Origin: an uncultured bacterium
GTDB taxonomy: Bacteria; Fidelibacterota; Marinisomatia; Marinisomatales; UBA1611
NCBI GenBank assembly: GCA_943788175.1
Contig: CALSPG010000005.1
Coordinates: 288,001-352,000, forward strand
Length of the DNA: 64,000 nucleotides
Direction of reading: 5' to 3'
Of the stretch, positions 3 through 20,204 are shown piece after piece. The notes under the pieces are model-generated. The model was not told the DNA's origin, searched no databases, and saw nothing but the letters and a program-made list of their open reading frames with translations. The translations under genes and the position numbers were made by a program. Each line of letters begins with the position of its first letter. Within the stretch, counting starts at the first letter, position 1.

Positions 3-194
3 CAAGGAGCTGACTTGATTGGTGTAGGTAGAGCAGCAATACCTTACCCAGATTGGAGTCTAAACCTTAAAGATGATAACTACAATCCTCCAAAGATGCC
101 GTTTACATCAGCGCAGCTAACTAAAGCGGGGTTAAGTGATGTGTTTATTGCTTATATGAAAAATTGGAAAGGATTTGTTGAAGATGAAAAGTGA
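3..194 (+). CDS. NADH:flavin oxidoreductase (old yellow enzyme family), C-terminal fragment cut by window start
   Basis: Manual translation QGADLIGVGRAAIPYPDW...FVEDEK*; resembles the OYE C-terminal 'AD(L/F)V.xGR...PD' motif. Confidence 0.65.
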   Translation, partial: QGADLIGVGRAAIPYPDWSLNLKDDNYNPPKMPFTSAQLTKAGLSDVFIAYMKNWKGFVEDEK

Positions 195-1056
195 TAATAA
201 TCCATATGCAGATGCATTAAATGGACTTGATCTAAAAGATCCTGTATCAGCATTCTTTAAATTTTGTAGAGAACGTGAACAAATCAGAATAAAAAGGGAA
301 AAAGGAGAGCCATTCCCTTGGTCACAGGATCAAATATTCCAAAAAGGTAGATTTCTAAATGTGTTTAGAGAAGATGACCGTGTAAGTAAATCTATTATAA
401 AGTTTGCTGAGGGCCTCGAACAAAATCTGCCAGATTTAGTTCAAGCATTATTTTTTGCAAGATGGTGCAATAAAGGAGTAGTACTTGATGCTATTTCTAA
501 AGATGTTTTAGCTGATAAAGCACTAATAAAAAATAAAATGATTGCTTTTGACTCCTGGTCAAATAAAACAGCTTATCCAGTAGAAGAAATAGAATGGAAT
601 GGTAAAAAGTACTCTAGGCTAGAAGCTGCAACAACATTATTTCATGATATTAAAGATTCTTTATGTGAAATAATAAAAAGATCTGCCGGTGATGTAATAG
701 TTGCTACTCAAGCTGTAAATCATGAGTTTAAAATGAACAATGATTTTCCAATATTTATGGCAGTCATTGACATTGCTTGGTTTCGGCCAGATATTATCAA
801 GCCGACTAGCCCTGTGCCTACAGGTATTGGGGCGGTCGCATTTTTAGATAGACTTCAAAAATTTCTTGGTACTAAAAGCCATGAGGCAACATGTGATGAG
901 ATGATTAAACTTCAAAATAGATATTGGCCAAATGCAAAACGTGAGTTTTTACCTATTGATGTTGAATATTTATCTTGTGAATGTCGTAAATATTACAGCT
1001 ATGTAAATGGCACAAAAAGATTTGAAGGTAAAAATATTTTCACTCCACCTACTTAA
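184..1056 (+). CDS. aGPT-Pplase1 / amino acid:DNA transferase-like (DNA base hypermodification family) protein
   Basis: N-terminal 'F..ERE.IRI.R..G.P.PW..D.I....RF.NV.REDDRVS' and C-terminal 'DVEY.SCE.RKY' motifs; ATG at 184 overlaps the upstream gene. Confidence 0.7.
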   Translation: MKSDNNPYADALNGLDLKDPVSAFFKFCREREQIRIKREKGEPFPWSQDQIFQKGRFLNVFREDDRVSKSIIKFAEGLEQNLPDLVQALFFARWCNKGVVLDAISKDVLADKALIKNKMIAFDSWSNKTAYPVEEIEWNGKKYSRLEAATTLFHDIKDSLCEIIKRSAGDVIVATQAVNHEFKMNNDFPIFMAVIDIAWFRPDIIKPTSPVPTGIGAVAFLDRLQKFLGTKSHEATCDEMIKLQNRYWPNAKREFLPIDVEYLSCECRKYYSYVNGTKRFEGKNIFTPPT

Positions 1057-1071
1057 CTATGAAAGTGGTTT

Positions 1072-2130
1072 TTATTTAATTTTTCGAATGAAGTCAACGG
1101 CTCTTTGTGTGCTTTTTCCATCATTAAAATAAAAGCAATTATTAAGCATTTCATTATACAGGTTTACCAGGTTAGGATTATTTAAGTCCTCTGCTACCAT
1201 ATCACTAATATCAGATTTCTCACCATTATAATTTTTTGCTATAGATAGAACGCTCATTTCTTCTGGCATATTATGAAGCTGGTCGTAGTCATTATTTGCA
1301 ATGATTATAGGTTTTTTTGTAACCAAATATTCATAAATGATTGATGACGTATCACTAATCATCAAATCTGATATGGCAAAATCATTCATTGTGCTATTTT
1401 TAATTATTTTCGCTGGATTCGAAAAATAGACATTTTTATAGCCATTATATTTTGCCCAAAGCTTTAACAGCTTAATCTTCCCTCTATCATGGAAATGAGG
1501 TCTTATAATAAGATTATAATTTTTATCGAGCTCCCTGATAAATTTCTTTCCATATATTTCTAACGTGCCATTGCCCCACTTCCATGTTGGGGCATATAAT
1601 ATATTTTTTCTATCTTTATCTCTTATCTTCAAAAAATCATAATATTTTTCTCTATCAATTCGATCATTGATATAATCATCAAATTTTGGGTAACCAATTT
1701 TGATTAACTTTTCTTCTGGAATATGAATATCCATATCTTTTTGCTTGTGTATGTGTTTAGGTCCTGACACAAAATGGTAATCATATGTTTCTAAAGTATT
1801 TCCAGATCCTCCAAATTTTTTGTCTCCTGCTCCATGGCCAATAAATATTGAAATGGACTTATTTTTATCATGTTTAATTTCTGAATTTGAACCTGATATT
1901 ATTACTCCCTCTAAATCATAAACTTCATTTTTAGGTTTTTTCAATACTTTCGGTGCTTTAAATATTCCACCGCCAGTTATTTCTGTATTTCGGAGATAGT
2001 ACTTAAATCTTAGAGCTCTATTTAATTTATTTACAACAAATACCCCTCCAGTCTTATCGTAAATTGGTTTTGCATGACCATACTGATACACTTGATTGGC
2101 AAAGAAATATATATTATTCATTTCTGGCAA
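1072..2130 (-). CDS. CDP-glycerol:poly(glycerophosphate) glycerophosphotransferase family (TagB/TagF-like)
   Basis: GYPKFD, ILYAPTW, RPH, SDLMISDTSSIIYEYL, DGKS..R motifs. Confidence 0.8.
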   Translation of the reverse strand: MPEMNNIYFFANQVYQYGHAKPIYDKTGGVFVVNKLNRALRFKYYLRNTEITGGGIFKAPKVLKKPKNEVYDLEGVIISGSNSEIKHDKNKSISIFIGHGAGDKKFGGSGNTLETYDYHFVSGPKHIHKQKDMDIHIPEEKLIKIGYPKFDDYINDRIDREKYYDFLKIRDKDRKNILYAPTWKWGNGTLEIYGKKFIRELDKNYNLIIRPHFHDRGKIKLLKLWAKYNGYKNVYFSNPAKIIKNSTMNDFAISDLMISDTSSIIYEYLVTKKPIIIANNDYDQLHNMPEEMSVLSIAKNYNGEKSDISDMVAEDLNNPNLVNLYNEMLNNCFYFNDGKSTQRAVDFIRKIK

Positions 2131-2148
2131 AATTACGTTTAATCGATA

Positions 2149-2871
2149 TTAAATAAACTTTTTAGGATTTTGATTAATAAAATCAAGTGCCTCGGGAGTA
2201 TCAATATCTATCCAAGGGTAACTTTTTATATCTACACTACCCATTAAGCCCTTACTCATTAGTAAATTGCATGCATCGGACAATGAGCACTCATCTTTTT
2301 CTTTAGCTTCTTTTAAATAATCAAAGAATTCGTATTTGCATTTAAAAATACCGCAATCAATTGCATTGTAGTTTGATAATGTTTTAGACATAAAACGTAT
2401 CAAATTTGAATCTTCATCGATCTTTAATTTCATCCCGTCATCAATATCGTGGATCTCATCAATTTTATAGTCAGCCCCTACGCTTGCAATAGTATTACTA
2501 TCTGACTTGTCATTTATGATTTTTAAAATATCACTCGTATAATAATGATCACTCATAGATATCATAAAATCTTCTCCAGTAGGTATATGCTTTTGAGCAG
2601 ATAAAACGCTTACACCATTTGCAAGTTTCCAGTCTGGATTATATGCTACTTCGATTTGGATTGGGGTTTGAAGCGTTTTTAAATGATTTTCAATAATATG
2701 ATTATTGAAGCCAGTTACCACTACGATGTTTTTAATACCAGCATCTATACAATTAGATAATAATTTATTTACAAGAGGTTGCCCCATTACAGGCACCAAA
2801 AGTTTAGGCGTATTATTTGATACGGATGATAGCCTTGAGCCTAAACCTGCAGCTATGATTACTAATTTCAA
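2149..2871 (-). CDS. Nucleotidyltransferase, likely inositol-1-phosphate cytidylyltransferase (IPCT-like)
   Basis: AAGLGSRL...PK signature, MSDH, DCGIF, WIDIDTPE; directly downstream of inositol-phosphate synthase. Confidence 0.7.
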   Translation of the reverse strand: MKLVIIAAGLGSRLSSVSNNTPKLLVPVMGQPLVNKLLSNCIDAGIKNIVVVTGFNNHIIENHLKTLQTPIQIEVAYNPDWKLANGVSVLSAQKHIPTGEDFMISMSDHYYTSDILKIINDKSDSNTIASVGADYKIDEIHDIDDGMKLKIDEDSNLIRFMSKTLSNYNAIDCGIFKCKYEFFDYLKEAKEKDECSLSDACNLLMSKGLMGSVDIKSYPWIDIDTPEALDFINQNPKKFI

Positions 2872-2886
2872 TTAATACTTTTCTTA

Positions 2887-4173
2887 TTAATCTTGGTCTA
2901 AATGTGTGATAAGCTCTTCGCCCATAATATGACGGAGGGTATTTTTCAGCTTTGCTAGCTGAACAAATATATCATGTTCAGGACCAACATTAGGCCTAGT
3001 CATTGGACTTTTGAAGTAAAAGGATAGCCATTCTTGCACACCAAACATATTAGATTTTTTAGCTAAATCAAGAAATAAAACTAAATCTAAAACTATTGGA
3101 GCCGCTAAAATACTATCTCGACATAGAAAATCAACTTTGATTTGCATAGGGTATCCAAGCCAACCAAATATATCAATATTGTCCCAACCTTCTTTATCGT
3201 CTCCTCTTGGAGGGTAATAATTAATTCTCACTTTATGATAAAGGTCACTATAAAGATCAGGATTTTTTTCTGGTTCTAATATTGTGTCTAGTACACCAAG
3301 TTTACTTTCTTCTTTTGTTTTGAAAGCATCGGGGTCATCCAAGACTTCACCATCCCTGTTACCAAGAATATTAGTTGAGAACCAGCCATTTATTCCAAGT
3401 TGTCTAGCTTTCAAGCCTGGAGCTAATATGGTTTTCATTAGAGTTTGCCCAGTCTTAAAGTCTTTTCCCGCAATTGGAGTTTTTGTGGTTTCAGCTAATT
3501 CGACTAATGCTGGGATATCTGCAGATAAATTTGGTGCGCCATTTGCAAATGGAATACCTAGTTTGATAGCAGCATATGCATATATCATGCTTGGAGATAT
3601 AGCCGGACTATCATTTCGAAGGCCTTCCTCAAATTTATTAATAGATGAGTGAACATCAGATGGCTCAAAATATATTTCTGTGCTTCCACACCAAATCATC
3701 ACGTTAGATGTAATATTATTCTTTTCATTAAATGATTTTATATCATTCATTACTTGTTCAGCCAAGTCCATTTTGGAAGTTCCTGTTTTTATCCAGTTTC
3801 CATCTAAACGACGAACATACTCTTTATCGAAAACAGCTTTAAAAACATTGATATTTTCAAGCTCTGGCTTTAATTGATCTAAAAGAGTTTTGTCTAATAC
3901 TTTAGAGCGGATGCTAACATCGTAAACATTCTCGTTACTTATATCCCAACCGCCAAAAACTAGATTATTCATATCAGCAACAGGTGCAAAATCTTTAATA
4001 ATTGGAGAGCGTTTTTCAGATCTTTTTCCTAACCGGATTGAACCCATTTGGGTCATACTTCCGATTGGTTTTGATAATCCTTTATTACAAGCTAAAACAC
4101 CACAAATAAATGTGCTGGCAACTGCTCCCATTCCTGGAATTAATACTCCGACTTTTGGATTTTCATTGTTCAT
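2887..4173 (-). CDS. ino1: myo-inositol-1-phosphate synthase
   Basis: GMGAVAST, FGGWD, ANGAPN, GKDFKTGQT, NILGNRDG, RDSILAAP motifs. Confidence 0.93.
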   Translation of the reverse strand: MNNENPKVGVLIPGMGAVASTFICGVLACNKGLSKPIGSMTQMGSIRLGKRSEKRSPIIKDFAPVADMNNLVFGGWDISNENVYDVSIRSKVLDKTLLDQLKPELENINVFKAVFDKEYVRRLDGNWIKTGTSKMDLAEQVMNDIKSFNEKNNITSNVMIWCGSTEIYFEPSDVHSSINKFEEGLRNDSPAISPSMIYAYAAIKLGIPFANGAPNLSADIPALVELAETTKTPIAGKDFKTGQTLMKTILAPGLKARQLGINGWFSTNILGNRDGEVLDDPDAFKTKEESKLGVLDTILEPEKNPDLYSDLYHKVRINYYPPRGDDKEGWDNIDIFGWLGYPMQIKVDFLCRDSILAAPIVLDLVLFLDLAKKSNMFGVQEWLSFYFKSPMTRPNVGPEHDIFVQLAKLKNTLRHIMGEELITHLDQD

Positions 4174-4259: not shown

Positions 4260-5369
4260 CTATTTAAACCTATCTGCCCATGTTTTTGTTCTTAAAAGGT
4301 AATAATTATTATCTTGAGGTAGGTAATTTTCATAACTGTAGTCATTTATATTTTTTGGCTTTGCCGGTTCAATTTGCGACCCTTCATGCCACTCATTAAA
4401 TGAAGTTATACCTATGATGTTAGGTTTTGATTTTATCGCGGCATTAAACACGGCATCATAGTATTCCCCCGAATTTCTATCTTTATAATTTTGAGCATTC
4501 CAAGGCCTTATCCTAGTATCAGAATATCCAGGGCCAACGCAAGGTATAAATATTTTATTATTGTTTTTAGCCCAATTTGATAAAAACTGCCAATTTTTGC
4601 TACTAGACCCAAATGTGAATCCATCGCTGGCAAAATAAGTATAAATCCCATCAAAACCTCCATCGATGAAAAAGTCACTTTCATTTTCGTGTACCCATAG
4701 GCCTATTACATACGAATCTACTTTAGTGTCTCTAATTGTATTTAAGCCTTCGGGTTTCAGTATGGATGCCCAGTCATATTTCGATATATGATAGGAATCA
4801 TATACATAAAATAATGGCTTACCTTCAAAACGATAAAACGCACCATGCTTCCCATAAATTTTTATTATATAATTCATCATTTCTACGACCATTTCGGAAG
4901 ATCTGTTATTTATTGGCTCAAGGTGAAAATTGACTTTAATATTTCTAGACTCTGCTATATCCATAATGAGTCTTACATTTTTATCTTCAAATGAGTTTTT
5001 CCCCCACCAAGATAAAGTAACAACTCCAATACCTGATTGCTCAATCATTTGCATATGCTTGGATATAATAGATGTGTCGTTACTACTGTAACAACCTAGT
5101 TCAGGATAAAAGTTCGCTCCGATATCTTCATGACCTAAAAATTTAGGATAATTATCCCAAGTGGTATCAGACCAGTGAGGCAGTACTTCATGGTCCCAAT
5201 GCCTTTGTGTACCATCAATTTCATCATTACCATACCAGGCATAGTAAAACGTATGTAGATTGTAGTTTAAATTCTTTTTTTGCCGTGGCATTATATTTTT
5301 ACAACCAAAAAGAGTGATTAAAAATATAGTAGTAATCTTTAACGAATTGTTTTTTTTATATTTAATCAT
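4260..5369 (-). CDS. Glycoside hydrolase family 99 (endo-alpha-mannosidase/mannanase), lipoprotein
   Basis: FYYAWYGN, ANFYPELG.YSS, TSFNEWHEGSQIEPA catalytic motif; LFGC lipobox. Confidence 0.88.
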   Translation of the reverse strand: MIKYKKNNSLKITTIFLITLFGCKNIMPRQKKNLNYNLHTFYYAWYGNDEIDGTQRHWDHEVLPHWSDTTWDNYPKFLGHEDIGANFYPELGCYSSNDTSIISKHMQMIEQSGIGVVTLSWWGKNSFEDKNVRLIMDIAESRNIKVNFHLEPINNRSSEMVVEMMNYIIKIYGKHGAFYRFEGKPLFYVYDSYHISKYDWASILKPEGLNTIRDTKVDSYVIGLWVHENESDFFIDGGFDGIYTYFASDGFTFGSSSKNWQFLSNWAKNNNKIFIPCVGPGYSDTRIRPWNAQNYKDRNSGEYYDAVFNAAIKSKPNIIGITSFNEWHEGSQIEPAKPKNINDYSYENYLPQDNNYYLLRTKTWADRFK

Positions 5370-6379: not shown

Positions 6380-7216
6380 ATGGGCATAGAAAAAAAAATA
6401 TCTTCAAAAGAAGTAGGTTTAGAGATCGGGCTAGTTTTAAGCAAGTTCTTTTTTAAGACTGAACATCTACATTTTGGTTTTTGGCCTGATGATTTGGAAA
6501 TATCTATAGATAATCTTAAAAAATCTCAAGATTACCACTCCGCAAAAATAATAGATTCAATTCCAGACGGCGTTCAAACTATCCTTGATGTTGGAAGTGG
6601 CTCTGGTGGACTAGCAAAAAAATTAGTTAATAGAGGCTATGAGGTAGAGTGTGTTTCCCCAAGTGATTATCTATCAGAAGCCATTGAAAAAAAACTTAAA
6701 TCAAGTGTTAAAGTTCATAGAAATACTTTTGAAAATTTAGAAGTTAAAAAATCGTTTGACCTAATTCTTTTTAGTGAAAGTTTTCAATATGTAAATATTG
6801 AAAAAGCGCTTAATAAAATCCCGGGATTAGTAAATGAAAATGGATATCTTTTAATTTGTGACTTTTTTCGGCAGCCTGGCACTGGTACAAAGCCACTAGG
6901 CGGAGGGCATGATTGGAAAGTTTTTCTAGAACACTTAAGCAACCATTCTTTTCTTAATTCTCTTGATATTGATATTACAAAAGAAACAGCTCGAACTTTT
7001 GATTTAATTAATAAAATAGTCGAAGAGGTGGCAAACCCAATTCGTGAACTTTCTTCAAAGTATTTAGGCAGTCACTATCCAAGGGGGATGAAAATCTTAA
7101 ATTGGTATTTTGACAAAAAGATAAGAAGATTGAACCGAATTTATTTTTCAGGAAATATGACAGGAGAAATGTTTAACAAACTAAAAACATATCGAATTTT
7201 AGTTTATAAACTATGA
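6380..7216 (+). CDS. Class I SAM-dependent methyltransferase
   Basis: HLHFGFW, ILDVGSGSG motif I, FDLILFSES. Confidence 0.85.
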   Translation: MGIEKKISSKEVGLEIGLVLSKFFFKTEHLHFGFWPDDLEISIDNLKKSQDYHSAKIIDSIPDGVQTILDVGSGSGGLAKKLVNRGYEVECVSPSDYLSEAIEKKLKSSVKVHRNTFENLEVKKSFDLILFSESFQYVNIEKALNKIPGLVNENGYLLICDFFRQPGTGTKPLGGGHDWKVFLEHLSNHSFLNSLDIDITKETARTFDLINKIVEEVANPIRELSSKYLGSHYPRGMKILNWYFDKKIRRLNRIYFSGNMTGEMFNKLKTYRILVYKL

Positions 7217-9683
7217 TAGCTCATTTCTTAAAAAATGGTTTTATTCGACAAATTATTTTTTATGGAGTATTAATACTAATATGCACGTATAATAATTTAT
7301 TTTCTCAATCCGTCAACGGGTTTGTCAGAGAATCTTCTTCCGGGGAACCAATTTCTTACGCGAATGTTTTTTTAAGTAATACTGTATTAGGGGCAGCGAC
7401 CACCAGAGATGGATATTTTGTATTATCAGATATCCCACCTGGGAAATATGTAATAAATGTTACAATGATTGGTTACAGCATTTTTAAAGAAGACATTGAA
7501 ATTAATGACTCAACTTCTCTCAGGTTAGATATTCGATTGAAAGAAGAAGTGCAATTAAGGCTTCAGAGGTCGTTGTTACTGCTGAAAGGCAAAAGTTTGA
7601 AAGAGCTATTGAAAGTAGTCAAATATCATTAGACCTGAGAGAAATAAATTCAGCCCCCGCGTTTATAGAGCCTGATGTCTTTAGAACTCTACAGATGCTT
7701 GCCAGGGGTGCAAGCGTCAAGTGACTTTTCCAGTGCGCTATATGTTAGAGGTAGCACTCCTGATCAAAATTTAATTATGTTAGATGGAATAGCGATTTAC
7801 AACCCTTATCACCTGGGAGGTATTTTTTCTACGTTTAATACAGATGCAATTAAGGAAGCGGATTTCCATGCTGGTGGTTTCCCTGCTCGCTATGGAGGAA
7901 GAATGGGCGCTATCTTAAACATTATAAACAGGGAAGGGAATGTAAATGAAATTAAAGGTGCGGCAAATATCTCTCTAATCTCCAGTAAAATCTTATTGGA
8001 AGGCCCAGTCCCAAAGTACAAAGGGATGAAAGGATCTTGGATGATATCTGGGCGCAGAACATATTTTGATAGAATAATTAAAGCATTAAAAATACCTCTA
8101 AGTAAAAATGAAGATGGCTCGAATAATTATTTCGAATTTCCTTATTACTTCTATGATTATCAATTAAAAGCGAATTTGGACATCAATGCGAACCATCGCC
8201 TCACCTACTCGCGTTTTTATGGCGATGATGTATTATATTATGACTTTGATGAAACCGACAACTATAGTGATTCAAATGTTAATGTTAATCAGGATTTTCA
8301 ATTTGGTATAGATTGGCCATGGGGCAACAAAACTAACGGCTTGACATGGAGGTGGATTATGTCTCCAGAGCTTATATCCAAGACCTTCATTTCTAATAGC
8401 TACTATAGATTTAATTTTAACTTAGGCTTCGATCAAAAGAACACATATACTTATTCAGACTCTGCAATTGCTGTATTTCAAAATATTGATTATAGTGTTT
8501 TTGATAAAATCAATGACAACACTATTGAAACAGAAATCACCTGGAAGGCTGATGATCGTCATGAAATTACTGGTGGTTTCCAGTTTAAAGATGTTAGCTA
8601 TGATTTAGGCATAGGCATCGGTATTGAAACACAGGATACGGTTTTTAATTTTTCCCCATTAGGTTTAAAAAACAAAACGCGCGAAACTTCACTATATGCG
8701 CAGGATAAGATTAGTTATTCTGACAAATTAAAACTTCAATTAGGGTTTAGAGCTACAGATTATAATCTCCACAATAAAATTTATATGGACCCAAGAATAG
8801 GTATTAAGTATCATTATAATTCAGACTTAGCATTGAAATTAAATTGGGGTATCTATCATCAATTTCTAACCACTGCCAATAACCAAGATGAAAACCTTAG
8901 ACTTGTTGAATTATGGATGGGGATTCCTGCAGACAAAGATGCTAGTGTATCGCAACATTTTATAAGCGGCATTGAATACATGTCTCCAAAAAATATATTT
9001 TATCGTTTAGAGCTATACAGTAAATCATTTGATAATCTTCTAACTGTTAAGCAAGATAATCCGAATACTATTGAAGAAGGTATCTTCTGACTCTACGATA
9101 AATGAATTTTGGGATACAAAAGGAAATAGCTGGGGGGTTGAATTTCTACTTAAAAAATCTTCGGGTAAATTAAATGGATGGTTAGGATATACCTACGCAG
9201 AAGCTAACTATTTTAATGAACCCAGCGGTTGGCATCATCCTAATTTTGATAGAACCCACACCGTTAATATCGTTGCTAACTACGATTTAACTCCTGAAAT
9301 ACAAACTAACTTTGGGTTAACAATGTCAAGTGGGAATCCATATACAAAAATAATGGGTAGAGTTTATGACTGGCAGCAGAAGCCTTGATAGTGATACATA
9401 TTGGTACCCTGTTGATAGTTATATTATTGGTGAGAAAAACACTGAAAGGTATGATGATTATTTTAGAATAGATATTGGGATGACTCGCAAAAAAGGTAAT
9501 TTATTTGGGGTCAACTATGATACATATTGGCAAATTATGAATGTAACTAGACATTTGAATATTCTTAGTTATGCATACAGAACTAAAATTGACCCTTGGA
9601 CTGGTAATCGTACGGGAGTGGAACGCAGGGCTATTCCAATGTTTCCTCTAATCATCACATTTGGAATTAAGTTTGACTTTTAA
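7213..9683 (+). CDS. TonB-dependent receptor with N-terminal carboxypeptidase-regulatory-like domain, split by several frameshifts (~7555, ~7697, ~9085, ~9380)
   Basis: GEPISYANV domain; EVVVTAER in a shifted frame; LPGV, LYVRG..DQNLIMLDG plug, GFPARYGGR; C-terminal Phe; four ORF pieces join into one gene. Confidence 0.85.
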
Positions 9684-11896: not shown

Positions 11897-13726
11897 ATGA
11901 ATAAATCGATTTATAAACGACTTTACAGCCTGGTTTCTGGATATTGGCCATTTTTAGTAATGTCCTCATTATCAGCATTTATTTATGTTGCATTCAATGG
12001 ACTATCTGTGTGGCTAACAGCTACTTTATTTAATAATATTTTAACTGATTTTGATGAGTTGCTCAAGAGTCAAATTTTATTATCTGAATCAAAAGACAGT
12101 TTAAATGGACAGTTAAAATTCTGGACAAATGAATTAATTCTTAGAGATACCGCGATTGAATCTCTTCGTGTTTTGTGTTACACATTAATTGGTTCATTTT
12201 TGATTAAAAACTTTTTTCTTTATATAAAGAATATCGCTCTTACATATATTCAGTTTAACCTTATCAAAAAGTTACGAGCTCAATTATATGCTCATTTACA
12301 ATCCATGTCATTATCTTTTTTTGATAAAAGGCAAACGGGCGAGCTTTCATCTATTGTTATTAACGATGTCTCAAATATGCGAGTAGCATTTGGGACTAGT
12401 TTCCATAAACTGTTCGTTGAGCCGATTAATATTATTGTTTTTATAGCGTTGCTATTTATAATCAATGTTAAACTAGCATTGTTATCAATTGTTATCGTTC
12501 CTCTAACAGGCGTAGTGGTAGTAATAATAGGTAAGAGTATCCGAAGGCGATCAAAAAGAACCGCTGAAAAAATTGCAAGAATAATGGGTATAATGAGTGA
12601 AAATCTTAATTCAATTAGAATCGTAAAGTCTTTCGCTATGGAAGCCTTTGAAACTAATCGATTTGAGAAAGAACAAGACCGGCATTATGCTCTAGATTTG
12701 AGGCAAGCGAAACTCCGTCTAATTTCATCTCCTATTACCGAAATGATTGGCGCTTTCATTGCTGTTATTCTTCTTTGGATTGGTGGTCATGATGTCCTGG
12801 TATCTAATGATATGAGTTCAGAAGACTTTATTCGATTTATTTTAATCCTTTTTAGCGTATTGCAGCCTATACGCTCTCTGAGTAATGTGAGTATTAATTT
12901 ACAAAAGGGCTTCGCTTCAGCTGATAGAGTATTTGATGTGTTAGATACGCAACCTTCAATAGTATCAAAACCCAATGCAATGAAAATCGATGATGTGAAT
13001 GAACAGATTACGTTTAAAAACGTTGGTTTTAATTATGAAGGAACTAAAAATATTTTGGAAAATATTTCTTTTTCTTTGAAAAAAGGAACAGTTACTGCTT
13101 TAGTTGGTGCTAGTGGAGCAGGTAAATCAACTATCGCTGATTTGATACCAAGGTTTTACGACGTTGTTGATGGTAAAATAGAAATTGATGGAATTGATAT
13201 CAAAAATCTGGATATTAATGCTCTGCGAAAAATGATGGGTATTGTTTCTCAGGAGACAATACTTTTTAATGATACCATTGGTGGAAATATTAAATACGGC
13301 CTCCGGAATGTAAATGACCAGCAATTAAAAAATGCTGCTAAAAATGCAAATGCCTTAGATTTTATTTTAGAGCAACCTAATGGTTTTGAAACGATGATAG
13401 GTGAAAAAGGTGTCAGGCTTTCTGGTGGTCAAAGGCAACGAATTGCTATTGCTAGAGCTATTTTAAAAAATCCTTCTATACTCATTTTAGATGAAGCTAC
13501 ATCCTCTTTAGATACTGAGTCTGAATATTTAGTTCAAAAAGCTATAGATAATCTTCTGGTTGATAGAACGGTATTGGTCATTGCTCATAGGCTTACTACT
13601 GTAGAGAATGCCGATACTATTATTGTGATGAAAGATGGCCAAATAGTAGATCTTGGTTCTCATGACGACTTGCTTAAAAAAGATGGATTGTACACCCGAT
13701 TATATAAAAAACAGTTCAAAAAATAA
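11897..13726 (+). CDS. ABC exporter, fused permease/ATPase, MsbA-like
   Basis: TM domain plus GASGAGKST, LSGGQRQR, LDEATS; adjacent to LPS genes. Confidence 0.88.
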   Translation: MNKSIYKRLYSLVSGYWPFLVMSSLSAFIYVAFNGLSVWLTATLFNNILTDFDELLKSQILLSESKDSLNGQLKFWTNELILRDTAIESLRVLCYTLIGSFLIKNFFLYIKNIALTYIQFNLIKKLRAQLYAHLQSMSLSFFDKRQTGELSSIVINDVSNMRVAFGTSFHKLFVEPINIIVFIALLFIINVKLALLSIVIVPLTGVVVVIIGKSIRRRSKRTAEKIARIMGIMSENLNSIRIVKSFAMEAFETNRFEKEQDRHYALDLRQAKLRLISSPITEMIGAFIAVILLWIGGHDVLVSNDMSSEDFIRFILILFSVLQPIRSLSNVSINLQKGFASADRVFDVLDTQPSIVSKPNAMKIDDVNEQITFKNVGFNYEGTKNILENISFSLKKGTVTALVGASGAGKSTIADLIPRFYDVVDGKIEIDGIDIKNLDINALRKMMGIVSQETILFNDTIGGNIKYGLRNVNDQQLKNAAKNANALDFILEQPNGFETMIGEKGVRLSGGQRQRIAIARAILKNPSILILDEATSSLDTESEYLVQKAIDNLLVDRTVLVIAHRLTTVENADTIIVMKDGQIVDLGSHDDLLKKDGLYTRLYKKQFKK

Positions 13727-13732
13727 TATTAA

Positions 13733-14857
13733 ATGAAGCCTCAAATTTCCATTTTGTTTGATGCTTATCATTTATATCATCTTGCCCAATTTGAGCCTTT
13801 AATGACTCTATTAGAAAAAGATGATAGGTTCGATGTTTATTATTCTACTTCAAGTGAAAACAGGAAAGATGAAATTGAACTATGCTCGTCTATTTTATTA
13901 AAGAGGAAAGGCCAGTTTGTTTTTCATAAAGATGAAAATATTCGGTGTGAGAAAATAAAAGATATTGGGCTCGATGTTTTTATTTGTGGTTGGTCTAGAT
14001 ATGATATTCATAATTATGTTAATGATAATACTCTTGTTGCAATGATCTACCATGGAATAGGTGTAAAACCTTCTTATTGGAATGATAATCATTCGAGGCT
14101 AGACCTTAGGTTTGTTGAAGGTGAATACAGGATAAATCAACTGAGAGAAAATGGGGTTAGTACAGATCTTTCATTGACAGGATATATAAAACTTGATCCA
14201 TTATTCAACAATGAAGCTTCTTCTTTTGAAGATAAAAAAAAAATGCTTGGTTTAAATAAATCTAGACCAACTATTTTATATGCTCCCACTTTTTACCCTA
14301 GCTCATTAGAAAAATTGGGAATGCAATTGGGTCATCTCACTAAAGAATATAATTTAATTATTAAACCACACATGTGGACCTATTATCTTGATAGCTTTGG
14401 AGGGGTAAATCTTAAAGGGCAAAGAAAATTAATTTATAATTTATCGGAAAAATTTGATCATGTAAAATTGTTGAGCCCGGATGAACATAATATTATACCC
14501 TATTATTCAATTTCAGATCTTTTATTAACCGAAGCGAGCAGTACCATATATGAGATGATTGCATTATCCAAACCAGTAGTAGTAAATAGGTTTTATCATT
14601 TAAAATTATCACACAGAATTTTTCAAAAAAGATTATATAAGCGAAGATTAAATCAAGAAATGAATGATGAAGTCAAAAACTTTTGCTTCTTGGCTGATAA
14701 TATCAAGCAATTGCCGTTTGTCTTAGATGAGGCCATAAAGCATAAGCATAAAGATATTGTTTCAATGCGAGAATATCAGAAAAAGATGCTATATAAGCTT
14801 GACGGTCAAGCCTCTAATAGGGCGAGAGATGAAATATTAAGAAGGTTAAAAAATTAA
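13733..14857 (+). CDS. CDP-glycerol glycerophosphotransferase family protein
   Basis: YHGIG.K, GYIKLD, ILYAPTFYP, KPH, SDLLLTEASS, DGQAS.R. Confidence 0.78.
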   Translation: MKPQISILFDAYHLYHLAQFEPLMTLLEKDDRFDVYYSTSSENRKDEIELCSSILLKRKGQFVFHKDENIRCEKIKDIGLDVFICGWSRYDIHNYVNDNTLVAMIYHGIGVKPSYWNDNHSRLDLRFVEGEYRINQLRENGVSTDLSLTGYIKLDPLFNNEASSFEDKKKMLGLNKSRPTILYAPTFYPSSLEKLGMQLGHLTKEYNLIIKPHMWTYYLDSFGGVNLKGQRKLIYNLSEKFDHVKLLSPDEHNIIPYYSISDLLLTEASSTIYEMIALSKPVVVNRFYHLKLSHRIFQKRLYKRRLNQEMNDEVKNFCFLADNIKQLPFVLDEAIKHKHKDIVSMREYQKKMLYKLDGQASNRARDEILRRLKN

Positions 14858-14862: not shown

Positions 14863-15948
14863 ATGATAAAAATACTCTTCGAAACACATCACCTTTATTA
14901 TTTACCAAACTTTGAACCAATTATTAATGAATTAAAAAAGAGAGGTAATTATGATGTCAATATATCTATGCCTCAATATATTAATGAAAGTGAAAAGGTC
15001 TTATTCCAATCCGCATGTAAGCTGTTGAAATTAAATATTATTTCTAGTCAAGATGAAGAATCAAGAATCGAGAAAATCATTTCCTCTAAATTTGATGTTA
15101 TTATTGTGGGTAACGTAGGTCAATTAAATAAGATAGTTTCAGAATCAACAATTGCTGTTATGGTCTACCACGGTATTGGCCTTAAACAATCTTACTACAA
15201 AGATATTGACGATAGGATTAATATTAGAGCTGTTGAGTCAAAGTCCAGACTAAATAAACTAATTGAGCAAGGACAAAAAAATCTTGCTCTTACTGGCTTT
15301 ACCAAGTTAGATCCGCTTTATTTATCAAGTGAAAAAGAAGACCATCATCTAAAAAGTGAACTTGGTATAAATAATGATTTTCCAATTATTCTTTATGCCC
15401 CGACATTCTATCCGACATCATTCGAAAATATATATCAAGAATTAGAGTTTATATCTTCTGAATATAATATATTGATTAAACTTCATAATTTTTCGTGGTT
15501 CCAGAGCCGTTATTCTTATCAGAGTAATCTTGCAACTAAAATAGCATTAAAAAATGAAAATATACATTTACTACCCAGCAATGTCTTTAACATTATTCCA
15601 TATTATAAAATTTCAGATGTTTTAATAAGTGATATATCGTCCACAATATTCGAGTTCTTGCCTTTAAATAGACCAATAATTCAGGTTGAATGTTTAAAGC
15701 TCCGATTCAGGCACAGAATTTTTAATAAAAGGTTTAAAAGAAAGTTGGATCTTAACAGGATGCAAGAGTTAGATTTTGTCTACAAAGTAGAATCGCCTTC
15801 AGAACTTCATAGATGTATTGTTTTTTCTTCAGATCATCCTGAAGAGATGTCAAAGTTAAGAGAAGAGGCTCATGATTATTACCTACTTAATAATAATGGA
15901 AAGTCATCAATAATGCTAATTGAAGAAATAGAAAAATCCTTGGCATAA
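14863..15948 (+). CDS. CDP-glycerol glycerophosphotransferase family protein (tandem paralog)
   Basis: YHGIGLK, GFTKLD, ILYAPTFYP, SDVLISDISS; clearly paralogous to the upstream ORF. Confidence 0.78.
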   Translation: MIKILFETHHLYYLPNFEPIINELKKRGNYDVNISMPQYINESEKVLFQSACKLLKLNIISSQDEESRIEKIISSKFDVIIVGNVGQLNKIVSESTIAVMVYHGIGLKQSYYKDIDDRINIRAVESKSRLNKLIEQGQKNLALTGFTKLDPLYLSSEKEDHHLKSELGINNDFPIILYAPTFYPTSFENIYQELEFISSEYNILIKLHNFSWFQSRYSYQSNLATKIALKNENIHLLPSNVFNIIPYYKISDVLISDISSTIFEFLPLNRPIIQVECLKLRFRHRIFNKRFKRKLDLNRMQELDFVYKVESPSELHRCIVFSSDHPEEMSKLREEAHDYYLLNNNGKSSIMLIEEIEKSLA

Positions 15949-15949: not shown

Positions 15950-16909
15950 ATGAAAATTGCAGTCTATAGTCCGAATTGGGTTGGCGATGCGGCCTTATCT
16001 CTTCCTTTTGTTTACCATATTAAACAAAAATATCCAAACTCTGAATTGATTATTATTTGTAAAGAATGGGTGCAGTCTGTTTATCAAAATAACCCAAATA
16101 TTGATAAAATCATTAGTATTGCGGTTACTGAATCTCGTGGAATAACTAATACATTTCGGTTAGGTTTTTTGTTGCGTAAAGAAAAAATTGAAATTTTTTA
16201 TACCCTCACAGATTCATTTAGAAGTTCTTTTGTGCTTTGGCTGTCAAAATCAAAAAAGCGGATTGGATATAACTCTCAAGGACGAGGGTTTTTTTTGACT
16301 TCAAAAGTAAAATTACCTTTAAAAAAAATCCATCGATATAAAAAATATTTAAAACTAATTGAAAAAGATGATATACCAATTGAACAGACTCTAATTTATT
16401 TTAAGAAAGAAGAAGTTGAATGGGCCAAACATGAAATCGAGGAAATTGGAATTAAAAATCCGGTTGGCCTTTTCCCATTCAGTGTTTCTGAAACAAGGAC
16501 GTTTCCAAATGAAAAAATTTCTGAATGGTTAAATGGTTCAAAAGAGAATTTTTTAATATTTGGAGCAAAAAATGATGGACAAAAAGCTAATGTAATAATA
16601 AATGAAAATAAAAATATTTCTATAGTGTCACTTTGTGGTAAGTACAGCTTAAGGCAAAGTATGGCTTTGATTTCTCTATGTAAATATGCTTTAGCCGCTG
16701 ATAGTGGTTTGGGACATATTTCATCAATAATAAAAGTCCCGACGATATCTTTTTTTGGCGCGAATAGAGCTTTTGTAACCAAGCCTCTTGGTAAGAGTTG
16801 TGTAGTCATAGATCAAAGTAATCGATGCAGTCCATGTAAAAAAAATATTTGTTGTCTTAAATCAATCCATAAGGATGATGTAAATTCGAGCATTAATTCG
16901 TTGATATAA
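15950..16909 (+). CDS. waaF: Lipopolysaccharide heptosyltransferase II-like (GT9)
   Basis: PNWVGD, SFRS, DSGLGH..., PTIS.FG. Confidence 0.75.
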   Translation: MKIAVYSPNWVGDAALSLPFVYHIKQKYPNSELIIICKEWVQSVYQNNPNIDKIISIAVTESRGITNTFRLGFLLRKEKIEIFYTLTDSFRSSFVLWLSKSKKRIGYNSQGRGFFLTSKVKLPLKKIHRYKKYLKLIEKDDIPIEQTLIYFKKEEVEWAKHEIEEIGIKNPVGLFPFSVSETRTFPNEKISEWLNGSKENFLIFGAKNDGQKANVIINENKNISIVSLCGKYSLRQSMALISLCKYALAADSGLGHISSIIKVPTISFFGANRAFVTKPLGKSCVVIDQSNRCSPCKKNICCLKSIHKDDVNSSINSLI

Positions 16910-16929: not shown

Positions 16930-17640
16930 ATGAAAGCATTTATTTTAGCAGCAGGTGTATCCAGGAGACTTTATCCTGAAACGTATAATACTCCAAAATG
17001 TCTTTTAGATGTTGGAGGGAAGCCAATTATTAATTATCAATTAGAAGCGCTTGAAAATATTGGAATTCAAGATGTGACAATGATTATAGGATATCATCGT
17101 GAAATGTTAGTCAACCACGTAACAAAGCAATTTCCAAAACTGAAGTTTGATTTTATTGTAAACAATCATTATTTTGAAACAAACACTGCTTATTCAGTCT
17201 ACCTAGGTCGGAAAAAACTTGTTACTGATAATCATATTTTAATGAACGCCGATGTAATATACCCACCTGAACTCATAACGAGAATTAATGACTCTTCACA
17301 TGAAACAGTCCTTGCCGTGGACATTAAAAAATGCGGAAGAGAAGAAGTCAAAGTGATTGAAGGGAGTAACTTTAAAATAAGAGCCATAGGAAAAGAACTA
17401 ATTGAAGAACAATGTTTAGGTGAATTTCTTGGCGTGGCTAAATTCTCTTTAGCGTTTAATCATTTATTTTCTGAGTCATTGTCAAAATTAATAAATGCTG
17501 GAGGAAAGTCTGATTATTTTGAGGCTGGTATTGAATCTCTTTTAAGTAAAACGGATGTCTTTTATAGTGATGTGTCTGACCTACCATGCCTTGAAATTGA
17601 TTTTTTAGAGGATTTAAATGAAGCTCGTAAATTATTTTAA
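16930..17640 (+). CDS. Phosphocholine/sugar-phosphate cytidylyltransferase family (LicC-like)
   Basis: ILAAG.SRRL...PKCLL, TNTAYS, EEVKV, GEFLG, EIDF.EDL. Confidence 0.75.
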   Translation: MKAFILAAGVSRRLYPETYNTPKCLLDVGGKPIINYQLEALENIGIQDVTMIIGYHREMLVNHVTKQFPKLKFDFIVNNHYFETNTAYSVYLGRKKLVTDNHILMNADVIYPPELITRINDSSHETVLAVDIKKCGREEVKVIEGSNFKIRAIGKELIEEQCLGEFLGVAKFSLAFNHLFSESLSKLINAGGKSDYFEAGIESLLSKTDVFYSDVSDLPCLEIDFLEDLNEARKLF

Positions 17641-17661: not shown

Positions 17662-18912
17662 ATGGCAAAAGTTTTCCCATTCAAAGGTTGGCGATATAAT
17701 GAAGACAATATTAATCTTTTTGAAGATGTAATTGTCCCCCCATATGATGTAATCACTCGTGAAGAGCAAGAAGAGTATTATAATAAATCTCCTTATAACT
17801 ACATTCGCATTAATTTGAACAATACAATAGGTGAAGAAAAATACGTATCTGCTGAGAACACATTAAATATGTGGATTGGAAGTGGCATATTAGTTGAAGA
17901 ACGTAAGCCTGCAATTTATATTTTATCTCAATCTTTTTTAGTGGATAACGCTAGAGTTGAAAGGATTAGTTGTATATGCGCTTTAACGTTATCTGAGCTA
18001 GGGGATGATGTTCTTGCTCATGAACAAACAATCGATAAGCATTTAGATGACCGTTATAAGTTAATGAGTTCAACTTCTGCAAATACGGGACAAATATTTA
18101 TGAGTTATAAAGATCAAAAAATGACCTTAGAGGAGCTACATCAGAATTTGAAAAGTGACCCATCAATGGAAGCTGATCTTGATGGCGTCTATTATAAATT
18201 ATGGCCCATTACAGATACAGATTCTATAAATAAGTTTGTAGTTAGTTTAAGAGATAAAAAATTAGTTATTGCTGATGGTCATCATCGTTATAAAACTGCT
18301 TTAAAATATTCAAAAAATCATGAAGGTGCTCAATCTGATAAGGTCATGGTAACATTGGTTAACAGTGAAAACCCCGGAATGCAAATTTTACCTACCCATC
18401 GAATTGTAAAAAAATCTAATATTGATATTCAGGAAATTAAAAAAAAAGTAATTGAAAATTTTAATTATAAAGAATTTGATGGGGTTGAACAATTATTAAT
18501 AAGTATGGAAAAATTTAAAACAGATAAAGGATTTTTAGGTTTATTCCATAAGCCCTCAAACATAGGATTCTTGTTAGAGTTTAATGCCTGGGAATTACTT
18601 AAAAATAATAAGAAAGAGAAAAGTAGAGCTTTAGACGAATTGGATACAAATATTTTGCATCAATTTTTATTGAAAGATATCTTTGGAATAGATACAAATA
18701 ATCAAGAAGATTTAGAAAACTTGGCTTATTTAAGAGGGAACAATTCTCCAATAGAAATGTTAGCAAAAGAAGAATATGATGTCGTTTGCTTCGTTAATCC
18801 TCCTTCACTTGATGACGTTTTCACGATTGCAGAAAGCGGTGAGGTGATGCCTCAAAAGTCTACATATTTTTTCCCAAAAGTATATTCTGGTCTAGTGACT
18901 AGGAATTTTTAA
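17662..18912 (+). CDS. DUF1015 family protein
   Basis: PPYDVI, HEQT, IADGHHRY, MPQKSTYFFPK. Confidence 0.88.
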   Translation: MAKVFPFKGWRYNEDNINLFEDVIVPPYDVITREEQEEYYNKSPYNYIRINLNNTIGEEKYVSAENTLNMWIGSGILVEERKPAIYILSQSFLVDNARVERISCICALTLSELGDDVLAHEQTIDKHLDDRYKLMSSTSANTGQIFMSYKDQKMTLEELHQNLKSDPSMEADLDGVYYKLWPITDTDSINKFVVSLRDKKLVIADGHHRYKTALKYSKNHEGAQSDKVMVTLVNSENPGMQILPTHRIVKKSNIDIQEIKKKVIENFNYKEFDGVEQLLISMEKFKTDKGFLGLFHKPSNIGFLLEFNAWELLKNNKKEKSRALDELDTNILHQFLLKDIFGIDTNNQEDLENLAYLRGNNSPIEMLAKEEYDVVCFVNPPSLDDVFTIAESGEVMPQKSTYFFPKVYSGLVTRNF

Positions 18913-18931: not shown

Positions 18932-20204
18932 ATGAATTTATTAAAAAAAGAGCTTGAAAAACTGATACCGGAGACTAAGCAAGATATTAAAACCTTAATA
19001 AAAAATAAGGGCGAAAGTCAAATAAGCACAGTTTCTGTTGCTCAAGCATATTCTGGGTTAAGAGGAATAAAAGCTTTTGTTTGTGATACCTCATCTGTTT
19101 CTGCAGATAAAGGGTTAATTATTCGTGGGTATCCACTTCTCGATATTGTCAATATTCTTCCAGAAGAAGTGTTTTATTTACTTTTAACTGGACGCCTTCC
19201 AAATTCAGAAGAGCTTTCAGATTTGCAAGGGCAGTATCTAATGCATTCTAAAGTTCCAAGCTACGTATGGTCTGTGCTTGAAAAATTACCTAAGGACACT
19301 CATCCAATGACAATGTTTAACCTTGGCATATTGGCGATGCAAAACGAAAGCATCTTTCAAAAAAAGTATGATGAAGGCATGCATAAAAATGAGTTTTGGG
19401 AGTACATCCTTGAAGATGGAATCCAATTGATAGCAAAACTTCCTGAATTAGGAGCAGGTATTTATAGGATGAGATTTAATAAAGGTGACAGAATTGAATC
19501 TAACAAAGATTTAGATTGGTCTGGCAACTTTGTTCATATGATGGGTATGTCTGATCAAGGAAAAGATTTCCAAAAATTAATGCAATTATATTTTATGTTA
19601 CATTGTGACCACGAAGGCGGAAATGTAAGCGCATTTGCTTCGCACACTGTCGCTTCAGCGCTGTCAGATCCTTTTTATTCTGTTTCTGCAGGATTGAATG
19701 GTTTAGCTGGGCCTTTACATGGCTTAGCAAATCAAGAGTGCCTTAAATTCGTTCTAGATATTCAAAAGCATTTTGATGGAGCTCCTACAAAAGAAGAGCT
19801 GAGAAGTTTTTGCTGGGACAGGCTCGAATCAGGTCAGGTCATTCCTGGATATGGGCACGCAGTTTTACGTTGCCCTGATCCTAGGTTTACTGCATTTATT
19901 AATTTTGGTAGAGAACATATTAAAGATGATGATGTTTTTCATATTGTAAATTCTTTATTTGATGTTGCTCCTAAGGTATTAACGGAACAAGGGAAAGCTA
20001 AGAACCCTTGGCCAAATGTTGATGCAGCATCGGGGGTCGCTGCTTTATCATTATGGTTTGAAGGAATTCAATTTTTATACGGTATTATTCAGCATCTCAA
20101 GAAGTATGGGGATGATAGCGCAAATGGTTTGGGAAAGAGCACTTGGGATTCCTATAACACGTCCAAAATCGGTTACGACAGATTGGATAAAAGAAAATTC
20201 CTAA
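18932..20204 (+). CDS. gltA: Citrate (Si)-synthase, eukaryote-like type; one frameshift at G-run 20032-20036
   Basis: [35 protein letters not shown]; true C-terminus ([10 protein letters not shown]...RPKS) lies in ORF 20016..20204. Confidence 0.92.

Follow-up and report, generated by a model that had tools for sequence, protein, structure and literature searches.

A conserved MIPS, cytidylyltransferase and TagF-like gene triad in Marinimicrobia suggests transfer of inositol phosphate to an envelope glycan

How would a bacterium use inositol phosphate activated with cytidine diphosphate (CDP) when the genes predicted to make CDP-inositol are followed by a gene for an enzyme of the TagF family, and not by a CDP-alcohol phosphotransferase gene? 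The question is raised by three genes within a 64-kb stretch of DNA (contig C5:288001-352000, here called the window) from the 2.27 Mb genome of an uncultured bacterium, assembled in 12 contigs and 92% complete. The bacterium belongs to the Marinimicrobia, also known as SAR406. NCBI treats Candidatus Neomarinimicrobiota and the phylum Fidelibacterota as synonyms and places them in the FCB (Fibrobacterota-Chlorobiota-Bacteroidota) group. The genes encode a myo-inositol-3-phosphate synthase (MIPS), a COG1213-type cytidylyltransferase (NTPt) and a TagF-family phosphotransferase (TagF1). They lie head to tail with spacings of 15 bp (MIPS/NTPt) and 18 bp (NTPt/TagF1), and the open reading frame (ORF) coordinates (Table 1) and Pfam matches bear out the co-oriented arrangement with 15-18 bp gaps that had been read from the sequence alone. 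A diderm host, also proposed in that sequence-only reading, is consistent with the presence of the Kdo (3-deoxy-D-manno-oct-2-ulosonic acid) transferase WaaA in the genome, together with an MsbA-like exporter, a heptosyltransferase-like gene of glycosyltransferase family 9 (GT9), the N-terminal domain of a TonB-dependent receptor and a type-9 secretion sorting domain.

Conservation of the triad was examined from the genus to the phylum level and beyond. Around the TagF1 orthologues of 11 relatives, MIPS, NTPt and TagF1 were contiguous wherever the contig permitted, the uninterrupted order being found in eight genomes. Among the 41 closest genomes, a set at the level of the order that includes the window genome (TagF1 E ≤1e-90; NTPt E ≤1e-20), all three genes were present in the same 12 and none in 28; one genome (G010, 84% complete) carried MIPS alone, and one of the 12 (G006) retained only a C-terminal remnant of MIPS. 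At the phylum level we compared 201 evenly drawn genomes, among which related genomes are not independent. A stand-alone NTPt paired with a TagF1-family gene was found in 18 of them, and 17 of these 18 also had MIPS; in 16 all three genes lay within about 3.5 kb with MIPS contiguous and immediately upstream of NTPt, and in a further genome (G146) MIPS was on another contig. MIPS was found in none of the 18 genomes that carry a TagF1-family gene without a stand-alone NTPt, and in 31 of the 165 genomes that have neither the pair nor a TagF1-family gene. The triad genes are thus gained and lost together.

A scan across phyla, with one genome per species, returned 71 loci with a TagF1-family gene, of which 57 had NTPt, 34 had MIPS and 33 had both. 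Group labels were drawn from record titles and tree position, several records being titled only 'uncultured bacterium', and some of the misses in Marinimicrobia are due to short contigs. Both genes accompanied TagF1 in 28 of 39 Marinimicrobia/Fidelibacterota loci (NTPt in 32, MIPS in 29) and in all 5 loci of the Cloacimonadota group. NTPt was present and MIPS missing at every locus of the Fermentibacteria/Sabulitectum (12 loci) and of the Calditrichaeota/KSB1 group (8 loci), and one Calditrichaeota and one KSB1 genome had MIPS elsewhere, beside a CDP-alcohol phosphotransferase gene and a MatE gene. Neither gene was found at the seven remaining loci, from metagenome-assembled genomes (MAGs) of Desulfobacterales, Gammaproteobacteria and Spirochaetota, all of which had in place of NTPt a gene like a second COG1213-like transferase of the window, NTPt3. 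The three genes stand side by side in relatives from the genus up to the phylum and again in the Cloacimonadota, an arrangement far beyond chance, and the conservation that the sequence-only reading had asked for is found.

The first gene product is, by homology, a MIPS. It matched PF07994 (NAD_binding_5) over residues 8-414 at 6.3e-98 (328.6 bits; cut-off 25) and PF01658 (Inos-1-P_synth) at 2.9e-32 (111.5 bits; cut-off 27), and its identity among triad-bearing relatives was 72-99%. The Actinobacteria-specific NCBIfam equivalog for the mycothiol INO1 enzyme scored 19.8 bits, below its cut-off of 638. MIPS enzymes convert glucose-6-phosphate to L-myo-inositol-1-phosphate. At a contig end (G000:C4:3-326) the N-terminus of MIPS occurs again, as a 109-residue stretch with 100% identity to the window gene; this is most likely assembly redundancy rather than a second gene. 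In a single-cell genome contig (L025/L035), a 668-residue ORF at 298-2304 starts as a TonB receptor gene and passes into the C-terminal ~76-100 residues of MIPS, immediately ahead of NTPt and TagF1, which reflects either loss of most of MIPS or a chimeric assembly.

NTPt matched PF00483 (NTP_transferase) at 2.4e-18, with 67 bits against a cut-off of 21.2. Its second-best NCBIfam match (7.4e-24) was to the N-domain of NF041135, the model of the bifunctional CTP:inositol-1-phosphate cytidylyltransferase (IPCT)/di-myo-inositol-phosphate-phosphate synthase (DIPPS); the score was 84.5 bits against an equivalog cut-off of 580, in a fused Thermococcales model of which only the N-domain (positions 1-211 of 419) can match. 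We searched the PDB with a profile of 22 MIPS-linked NTPt orthologues, and the top three matches were the three solved IPCTs (2xme, 6.4e-25; 4mnd, 4.7e-24; 4jd0, 2.6e-20), each aligned over its full length including the substrate lobe. The fourth-ranked match had an E-value of 2.7e-17, and LicC was aligned in the N-terminal half only. The G-x-G-x-R loop (A8-G9-x-G11-x-R13), K23 and D108 were invariant in the 22 orthologues and correspond in the alignments to GAGKR, K and GD of 4jd0 and 2xme, the former being the T. maritima enzyme (fold-search listing; PMC12275187, excerpt). The names attached to homologues, mostly unnamed close relatives, ranged from 'choline kinase' to one '1L-myo-inositol 1-phosphate cytidylyltransferase' and were uninformative. 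These results point to an IPCT-like enzyme whose substrate would be inositol-1-phosphate.

TagF1 matched PF04464 (Glyphos_transf) at 3.7e-23 (82.5 bits; cut-off 22.1), with residues 114-349 aligned to model positions 133-366. A structural model built from 51 orthologues, with a mean predicted local distance difference test (pLDDT) score of 91.5, had its best match in Staphylococcus epidermidis TagF (Z 26.2, root-mean-square deviation 3.1, 312 residues aligned, 3-352 against TagF 351-718), followed by Cps3D (Z 23.6), Bcs3 (Z 23.0) and TarL 209-561 (Z 22.4); the next family, UDP-GlcNAc 2-epimerases, reached Z ≤20.8. Foldseek also ranked TagF first (1.1e-14), and sequence identity to solved members was 16-20%. 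Invariant among the 51 orthologues were H99 (in G-H-G-x-G-D-K), H212 (in R-P-H) and a S-D-x-S-S...Y-E motif. TagF H444 and TarL H300 are the catalytic base of these enzymes, and TarL H433 contacts the alpha-phosphate. H212 was aligned with TarL H433, as counted in the HMMER alignment, and H99 stands at the offset expected for TagF H444/TarL H300, judged from aligned ranges only. Both H300 and H433 are essential in TarL, and polymerases of the TagF family have an extra N-terminal domain (PMC10901376, excerpt). All 352 residues of TagF1 form the GT-B domain, and the N-terminal domain of the polymerases TagF, TarL and TarK is absent; for this reason TagF1 appears to be a TagB/TarF-like transferase that adds a single unit and does not polymerise.

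The window genome has three PF04464 genes in total, all inside the window (TagF1, TagF2 and TagF3). A midpoint-rooted FastTree phylogeny was built from 162 TagF-like ORFs of the retrieved loci. In it, TagF1 grouped with every TagF gene that adjoins NTPt in one 72-row clade (support 99), distinct from TagF2 and TagF3. The donor of TagF1 is predicted to be CDP-inositol, the basis being the adjacent cytidylyltransferase and MIPS genes.

Contigs from RNA libraries of two marine studies span the triad junctions (X1, 1099-3597; X2, 2121-4420; X8, 1813-3552). They show presence in RNA libraries and are weak evidence for one transcript, DNA carry-over being possible. A scan of positions 800-5600 found promoter-like sites (20, shuffled mean 26.8) and terminator-like sites (1, shuffled mean 2.2) at or below the shuffled expectation, and is therefore uninformative on the operon. 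Two genes flank the triad. Upstream, 86 bp from MIPS, is a gene for a 369-residue protein of glycoside hydrolase family 99 (GH99, endo-alpha-mannosidase type), a family unexpected in a free-living marine bacterium; by eye, its N-terminus resembles a lipoprotein signal. We considered GH99 as a fourth operon member and rejected it, since its synteny is confined to the genus (seven loci) and it is missing from the other triad loci. Beyond TagF1 is a gene for a 293-residue protein whose sole match was the helical domain of phage 5-hydroxymethyldeoxyuridine (5-hmdU) DNA kinases, with no match in a PDB sequence search. This gene adjoins TagF1 in 10 of the 71 loci; it is convergent within the genus, and co-directional and a few bp downstream in five others (L036 and L038-L041).

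If NTPt makes CDP-inositol, another enzyme of the cell might consume it. The sequence-only reading had found no CDP-alcohol phosphotransferase in the window and had called for a genome search for consumers of the DIPPS or phosphatidylinositol-phosphate synthase (PIPS) type. The absence holds for the whole of contig C5, where no PF01066 match was obtained, and the search of the genome revealed three PF01066 genes (two on contig C1, one on C3), none tied to MIPS by position or distribution. They encode PgsA, beside PgpA (124.1 bits against 109.1), PssA, beside Psd (112.6 bits against 107), and a PgsA-like protein between WaaA and FtsY that scored 96.7 bits against the pgsA cut-off of 109.1. We considered the last of these, directly downstream of WaaA (L002, G000:C1:135392-138856; ORFs 115-1431 and 1444-2028), as the true CDP-inositol consumer and rejected it on its distribution, as it occurs in 35 of the 41 order-level genomes regardless of MIPS, which is present in 13. 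The CDP-alcohol transferase genes beside WaaA and in a Fermentibacteria cluster with TagF-like and LpxL genes may have a role connected with lipid A or the core. For NTPt, routes through phosphonate and phosphocholine were likewise considered, and no match to phosphoenolpyruvate (PEP) mutase or to the choline kinase family was found in the 92%-complete genome.

A different picture emerged where MIPS occurs without the pair. There MIPS stood beside a CDP-alcohol phosphotransferase gene in 5/5 examined loci (G124, G051, G075, G063 and G146), G146 having both this arrangement and the NTPt-TagF1 pair. Because MIPS adjoins a CDP-alcohol phosphotransferase where the pair is missing, the two kinds of partner look like alternative fates of inositol phosphate in the phylum, the window's order using the TagF type. 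Fusions of an NTPt-like domain to a CDP-alcohol transferase (440-485 residues, IPCT/DIPPS-like) were also seen in six genomes (G064, G071, G133, G194, G214 and G226), as at L109 3668-4957; in G133, G194, G214 and G226 no MIPS match was found at E ≤1e-40.

The acceptor was approached through gene order. The window has a second set of envelope genes (MsbA-like exporter, TagF2, TagF3, GT9 and NTPt3; Table 1), and in relatives the triad is joined to it. The order MsbA-MIPS-NTPt-TagF1 was found at L029 and L030, with MsbA first at other loci too, and L030 continues after the triad with GT4 and GT2 glycosyltransferases, two TagF-like genes and NTPt3. At L027 the order is MsbA, UDP-GlcNAc 2-epimerase, MIPS, NTPt, TagF1, TagF3, GT9, NTPt3, and TagF3 follows TagF1 directly there and at three further loci. 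Outside the Marinimicrobia, the NTPt-TagF1 pair lies between LpxL and GT9 in a Calditrichaeota locus, and a Fermentibacteria locus combines it with a TagD-like cytidylyltransferase, three more TagF-like genes, a CDP-alcohol transferase and an LpxL-type acyltransferase. From this synteny, lipid A-core or a comparable lipid-linked glycan is the most probable acceptor. The triad is an accessory module, present only in some lineages, on top of the more widespread MsbA-TagF2-TagF3-GT9-NTPt3 cluster, like a variable surface decoration. NTPt3 is the outgroup of the NTPt tree, with 24-31% identity to NTPt (tblastn), and is the probable donor supplier for TagF2/TagF3.

Table 1. Coordinates in the window of the triad, of the second envelope cluster and of neighbouring genes.
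Feature	Coordinates	Strand	Product	Length, match or context
HMUDK_hel protein	175..1056	+	Protein with helical domain of phage 5-hmdU DNA kinases	293 aa; PF18723 4.2e-18
TagF1	1072..2130	-	TagF-family CDP-alcohol-dependent phosphotransferase; predicted CDP-inositol:acceptor inositol-phosphotransferase, single addition	352 aa
NTPt	2149..2871	-	COG1213-type cytidylyltransferase, predicted CTP:inositol-phosphate cytidylyltransferase (IPCT-like)	240 aa
MIPS	2887..4173	-	myo-Inositol-3-phosphate synthase	428 aa; first triad gene
GH99	4260..5369	-	GH99 family protein	369 aa; PF16317 7.7e-137
TonB receptor	7213..9683	+	TonB-dependent receptor, split	ORFs of 139, 471, 105, 105 aa
MsbA-like	11897..13726	+	MsbA-like ABC exporter, probable partner	ABC_membrane + ABC_tran; directly before triad in relatives
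TagF2	13733..14857	+	Second TagF-like phosphotransferase, other clade than TagF1	PF04464 7.5e-08
TagF3	14863..15948	+	Third TagF-like phosphotransferase, other clade than TagF1	PF04464 5.3e-16
GT9	15950..16909	+	Heptosyltransferase-like glycosyltransferase (LPS core type)	PF01075 5.8e-26
NTPt3	16930..17640	+	Second COG1213-like NTP transferase	PF12804 1.1e-14, PF00483 7.5e-14
DUF1015	17662..18912	+	DUF1015 protein	PF06245 3.7e-70
Citrate synthase/M14	18932..22450	+	Citrate synthase domain joined to M14 carboxypeptidase with MAM + dockerin	1172 aa; citrate synthase profile 1-318 of 357

Our proposal for the chemistry is as follows. MIPS would supply L-myo-inositol-1-phosphate from glucose-6-phosphate, and NTPt would couple it with CTP to form CDP-inositol. 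TagF1, as a peripheral-membrane GT-B enzyme, would then deprotonate a hydroxyl of the lipid-linked acceptor through H99, and the activated hydroxyl would attack the beta-phosphorus of CDP-inositol, so that CMP leaves and one inositol phosphate is held in phosphodiester linkage. This mechanism is borrowed from TagF/TarL, with CDP-inositol as the predicted donor. The transfer would take place on the cytoplasmic face of the inner membrane and would be followed by flipping by the MsbA-like exporter, as the gene order suggests. We thus favour, at slightly better than even confidence, a reading in which the cell makes CDP-inositol and uses it to add a single inositol phosphate to a lipid-linked glycan of the envelope, which is probably lipid A-core. 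The comparative tests that we ran all support the idea of decoration by MIPS, an IPCT-like enzyme and a TagF-like enzyme, and the corresponding proposal of the sequence-only reading, that a TagF-like enzyme consumes CDP-inositol to decorate lipopolysaccharide (LPS) or another glycan, stands in part: the conservation of the triad, the distribution of PF01066 genes and the lipid A/core-type clusters argue for it, its enzyme specificities are predictions, and in the Fermentibacteria, which carry the pair, no MIPS was found (0 of 8 genomes).

Several observations weigh against this favoured reading. Concerning the acceptor, the best NCBIfam match of the MsbA-like exporter, MsbA_lipidA, scored 497 bits, under the cut-off of 602, and that of GT9, heptosyltransferase II, scored 128.4 bits, under 134.6. 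In the window itself ~7.7 kb and a change of strand separate the triad from the MsbA cluster, and it is from synteny that the acceptor is named. Concerning the substrate, NTPt as a single sequence hits a wide range of nucleotidyltransferases, and a PDB search with it placed the A. fulgidus IPCT third (1.5e-11), behind slightly better ST0452-like sugar-1-phosphate enzymes. In a fold search with the AlphaFold model of NTPt (pLDDT 93.9), the phosphonate enzyme PntC came first (Z 28.9), followed by the T. maritima IPCT (Z 28.0), the A. fulgidus IPCT-DIPPS (Z 27.6) and many sugar-1-phosphate enzymes (Z 25-27); with the top rows within about 1-2 Z, the model comparison gives no substrate discrimination. 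The cytidylyltransferase family of NTPt includes enzymes for inositol-1-phosphate, phosphocholine, phosphoglutamine and phosphoglycerate (PMC12275187, excerpt), and with such diverse substrates homology alone cannot name that of NTPt. Finally, the pair was found without MIPS in one genome of the phylum (G194, 95% complete) and at all 12 Fermentibacteria loci.

The Fermentibacteria hold our confidence in the transfer of inositol phosphate at only a little better than even. NTPt and TagF1 were adjacent at 12/12 of their loci, with MIPS at 0/12, and a PF07994 search of 8 Fermentibacteria genomes, for which completeness was not reported, gave 0/8 matches. Even so, of the 52 positions at which MIPS-linked NTPt shows at least 90% conservation, the Fermentibacteria NTPt shares 51. 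The sole change is L165 to Y/F, two residues past the invariant K163, at a position occupied by L and I in two solved IPCTs. Their TagF1 keeps 79 of 85 positions of at least 90% conservation, the clearest switch being D117 to Q. In the NTPt tree the Fermentibacteria were sister to the MIPS-linked Cloacimonadota group (support 99). Three possibilities are considered: MIPS was lost and inositol phosphate comes from another source; changes at a few residues shifted the pair to another donor; or inositol phosphate was never its substrate. Four unannotated ORFs beside the Fermentibacteria cluster (L047 84-1919, 2634-3413, 3946-4710 and 4707-5597) had no Pfam match at E <0.05.

In the strongest alternative, NTPt activates some other phospho-compound, such as phosphoglycerate, a phospho-amino acid or another polyol phosphate, and TagF1 transfers it, MIPS being linked through inositol in the acceptor or in a regulatory manner. 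The near-complete conservation of the pair in Fermentibacteria, with MIPS found in 0 of 8 genomes, the range of substrates in the family and the fold-level tie between IPCTs and PntC all favour it, as do the Desulfobacterales and Gammaproteobacteria MAGs in which TagF1-clade genes adjoin an NTPt3-like gene and not NTPt. Against it stand the position of MIPS immediately upstream of NTPt in 16 of the 18 pair-bearing genomes and its absence from all 18 genomes with a TagF1-family gene only, the full-length IPCT matches at the top of the profile search, and the lack of PEP mutase and choline kinase family matches in the genome. On balance we regard another substrate as unlikely, while giving it more weight than any further alternative.

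TagF1 might instead place inositol phosphate from CDP-inositol on a membrane lipid (diacylglycerol, ceramide or another lipid alcohol) by a Kennedy-like route. In the window's order the MIPS-bearing genomes have no MIPS-linked CDP-alcohol phosphotransferase, which TagF1 could replace, and other families of the phylum do pair MIPS with such an enzyme. A CDP-inositol pathway, one that uses a CDP-alcohol transferase, has been put forward for the inositol lipids of Bacteroides vulgatus and Prevotella (PMC9246714, excerpt). The characterised acceptors of the TagF family are, however, lipid-linked intermediates ending in a glycan or polyol phosphate and not bare lipid alcohols (PMC10901376, excerpt), and the location of the triad between MsbA and TagF-like/GT9 genes in relatives fits the stepwise building of a glycolipid better. 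The occurrence of both arrangements in G146 also suggests that their functions are non-redundant. A lipid acceptor seems improbable to us, and more so than another substrate.

The sequence-only reading had offered, as a variant, an inositol teichoic-acid-like polymer, with TagF1 as a polymerase making poly(inositol phosphate) for a capsule or O-chain. Polyol-phosphate capsules are indeed built by TagF-like enzymes in Gram-negative bacteria (PMC5974469, excerpt), and several clusters have two or three TagF1-clade paralogues. This variant is disfavoured, as TagF1 consists of the GT-B domain alone and lacks the extra N-terminal domain of TagF-family polymerases; in addition, no capsule export genes of the KpsMT/Wzx/Wzy type were seen among the annotated neighbours of the triad, a genome-wide search not having been made. 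We consider a polymer very improbable. A soluble inositol-phosphodiester solute of the di-myo-inositol phosphate or glycero-phospho-inositol type, with TagF1 in place of the DIPPS, is just as hard to credit, for although MIPS and IPCT are the classical start of di-myo-inositol-phosphate synthesis (PMC12275187, PMC9246714, excerpts) and no DIPPS-type partner is linked to the triad in the window genome, the synteny is with lipid A/core-type genes, the TagF family works at the membrane on lipid-linked acceptors (PMC10901376, excerpt) and other families of the phylum already have canonical NTPt-CDP-alcohol transferase fusions.

The remaining neighbours of the second envelope cluster were recorded as side observations. 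Directly after NTPt3 is a gene for a DUF1015 protein, also found near NTPt3 at L029, L066 and L092 and without a match in a PDB sequence search. DUF1015 proteins have been proposed as serine kinases, 'SerBK' (2026 preprint 10.1101/2024.10.14.618325, excerpt), and phosphoserine as the NTPt3 substrate would be pure speculation. At least three ORFs in the window make up the TonB-dependent receptor, for which relatives have one ORF of 791-821 residues (L022 14141-16606; L031 2168-4543); this points to either frameshifts or assembly errors in the window copy. The ORF that joins citrate synthase to an M14 carboxypeptidase corresponds at L030 to separate neighbouring genes for a citrate synthase (423 residues) and an M14 peptidase, and is a probable fusion through a frameshift or assembly error.

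To our knowledge, the only role known or proposed for CDP-inositol is that of donor to CDP-alcohol phosphotransferases that make solutes and lipids. The known donors of the TagF family are CDP-glycerol and CDP-ribitol. The combination of MIPS with an IPCT-like and a TagF-like enzyme would be a use of CDP-inositol that has not been described so far. In a literature search that left most subscription journals outside its reach, no link between CDP-inositol or an IPCT and a TagF-like enzyme was found, nor, judging by titles and abstract openings, any report of inositol synthesis in Marinimicrobia; for inositol phosphate in teichoic acids, capsules or O-antigens, nothing relevant was among the matches listed. 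If the favoured reading is true, the TagF family would gain a new donor class and bacterial inositol a new fate. An anionic cyclitol phosphate carried by LPS would influence surface charge and metal binding, and also how phages and grazers recognise the cell. The prediction would also be a first concrete, testable statement on envelope chemistry in uncultured SAR406/Marinimicrobia, Cloacimonadota and their relatives. More tentatively, and with appreciably less confidence than for the triad itself, we suggest that in Marinimicrobia and neighbouring FCB candidate phyla lipid A-core may be completed not by sugars only but by a set of three to five TagF-like phosphotransferases, with alcohol-phosphate units from CDP-activated donors giving a 'teichoic-acid-like' LPS core to which the triad supplies inositol phosphate. 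TagF1 would in that case be the first TagF-family enzyme with a cyclitol donor, and inositol phosphate a surface epitope that varies within one of the most abundant bacterial groups of the deep ocean. The function of the triad is a prediction that comparative genomics supports well and that is biochemically unproven, and since the three proteins are small and soluble or peripheral, it is directly testable in E. coli.

Compared with known systems, the triad is closest in its first two steps, MIPS and a COG1213-type cytidylyltransferase, to the IPCT/DIPPS pathway of (hyper)thermophiles, and the IPCTs of Archaeoglobus fulgidus and Thermotoga maritima are the best PDB relatives of NTPt in the profile search. 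The consumer in that pathway is a membrane-integral CDP-alcohol phosphotransferase (PF01066), whereas that of the triad would be a TagF-type GT-B enzyme; NTPt is a stand-alone protein of 240 residues, unlike the fused IPCT/DIPPS, and its carriers are, by record titles, MAGs of marine and sediment mesophiles in which the gene context is of the lipid A/core type. Within the same FCB superphylum, the B. vulgatus/Prevotella cluster (Heaver et al. 2022, PMC9246714, excerpt) also has MIPS and a stand-alone NTP transferase proposed to make CDP-inositol, a function likewise unconfirmed. That cluster adds a CDP-alcohol phosphatidyltransferase and a haloacid dehalogenase (HAD) hydrolase for proposed inositol lipids; the triad lacks both and has a TagF-like enzyme instead. 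Caulobacter CpgD/CpgA offers a further parallel, with an IPCT-like COG1213 cytidylyltransferase, an unusual CDP-activated donor and an anionic envelope lipid in a diderm, and differs in its phosphoglycerate substrate (CDP-glycerate for ceramide diphosphoglycerate), its sphingolipid acceptor and its lack of MIPS; the activity of CpgA is given there as still to be determined (PMC12275187, excerpt). The teichoic-acid and capsule enzymes TagB/TarF, TagF/TarL, Cps3D and Bcs3 share with TagF1 the fold (Z 22-26 over the whole of TagF1), H212 aligning with H433 of TarL and H99 being the candidate for the catalytic base, and teichoic-acid systems share the gene logic of a cytidylyltransferase gene next to a transferase gene. 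From these enzymes TagF1 is set apart by its predicted donor, CDP-inositol in place of CDP-glycerol or CDP-ribitol, by the absence of the polymerase N-domain, and by a diderm host in which it lies in a lipid A/core context.

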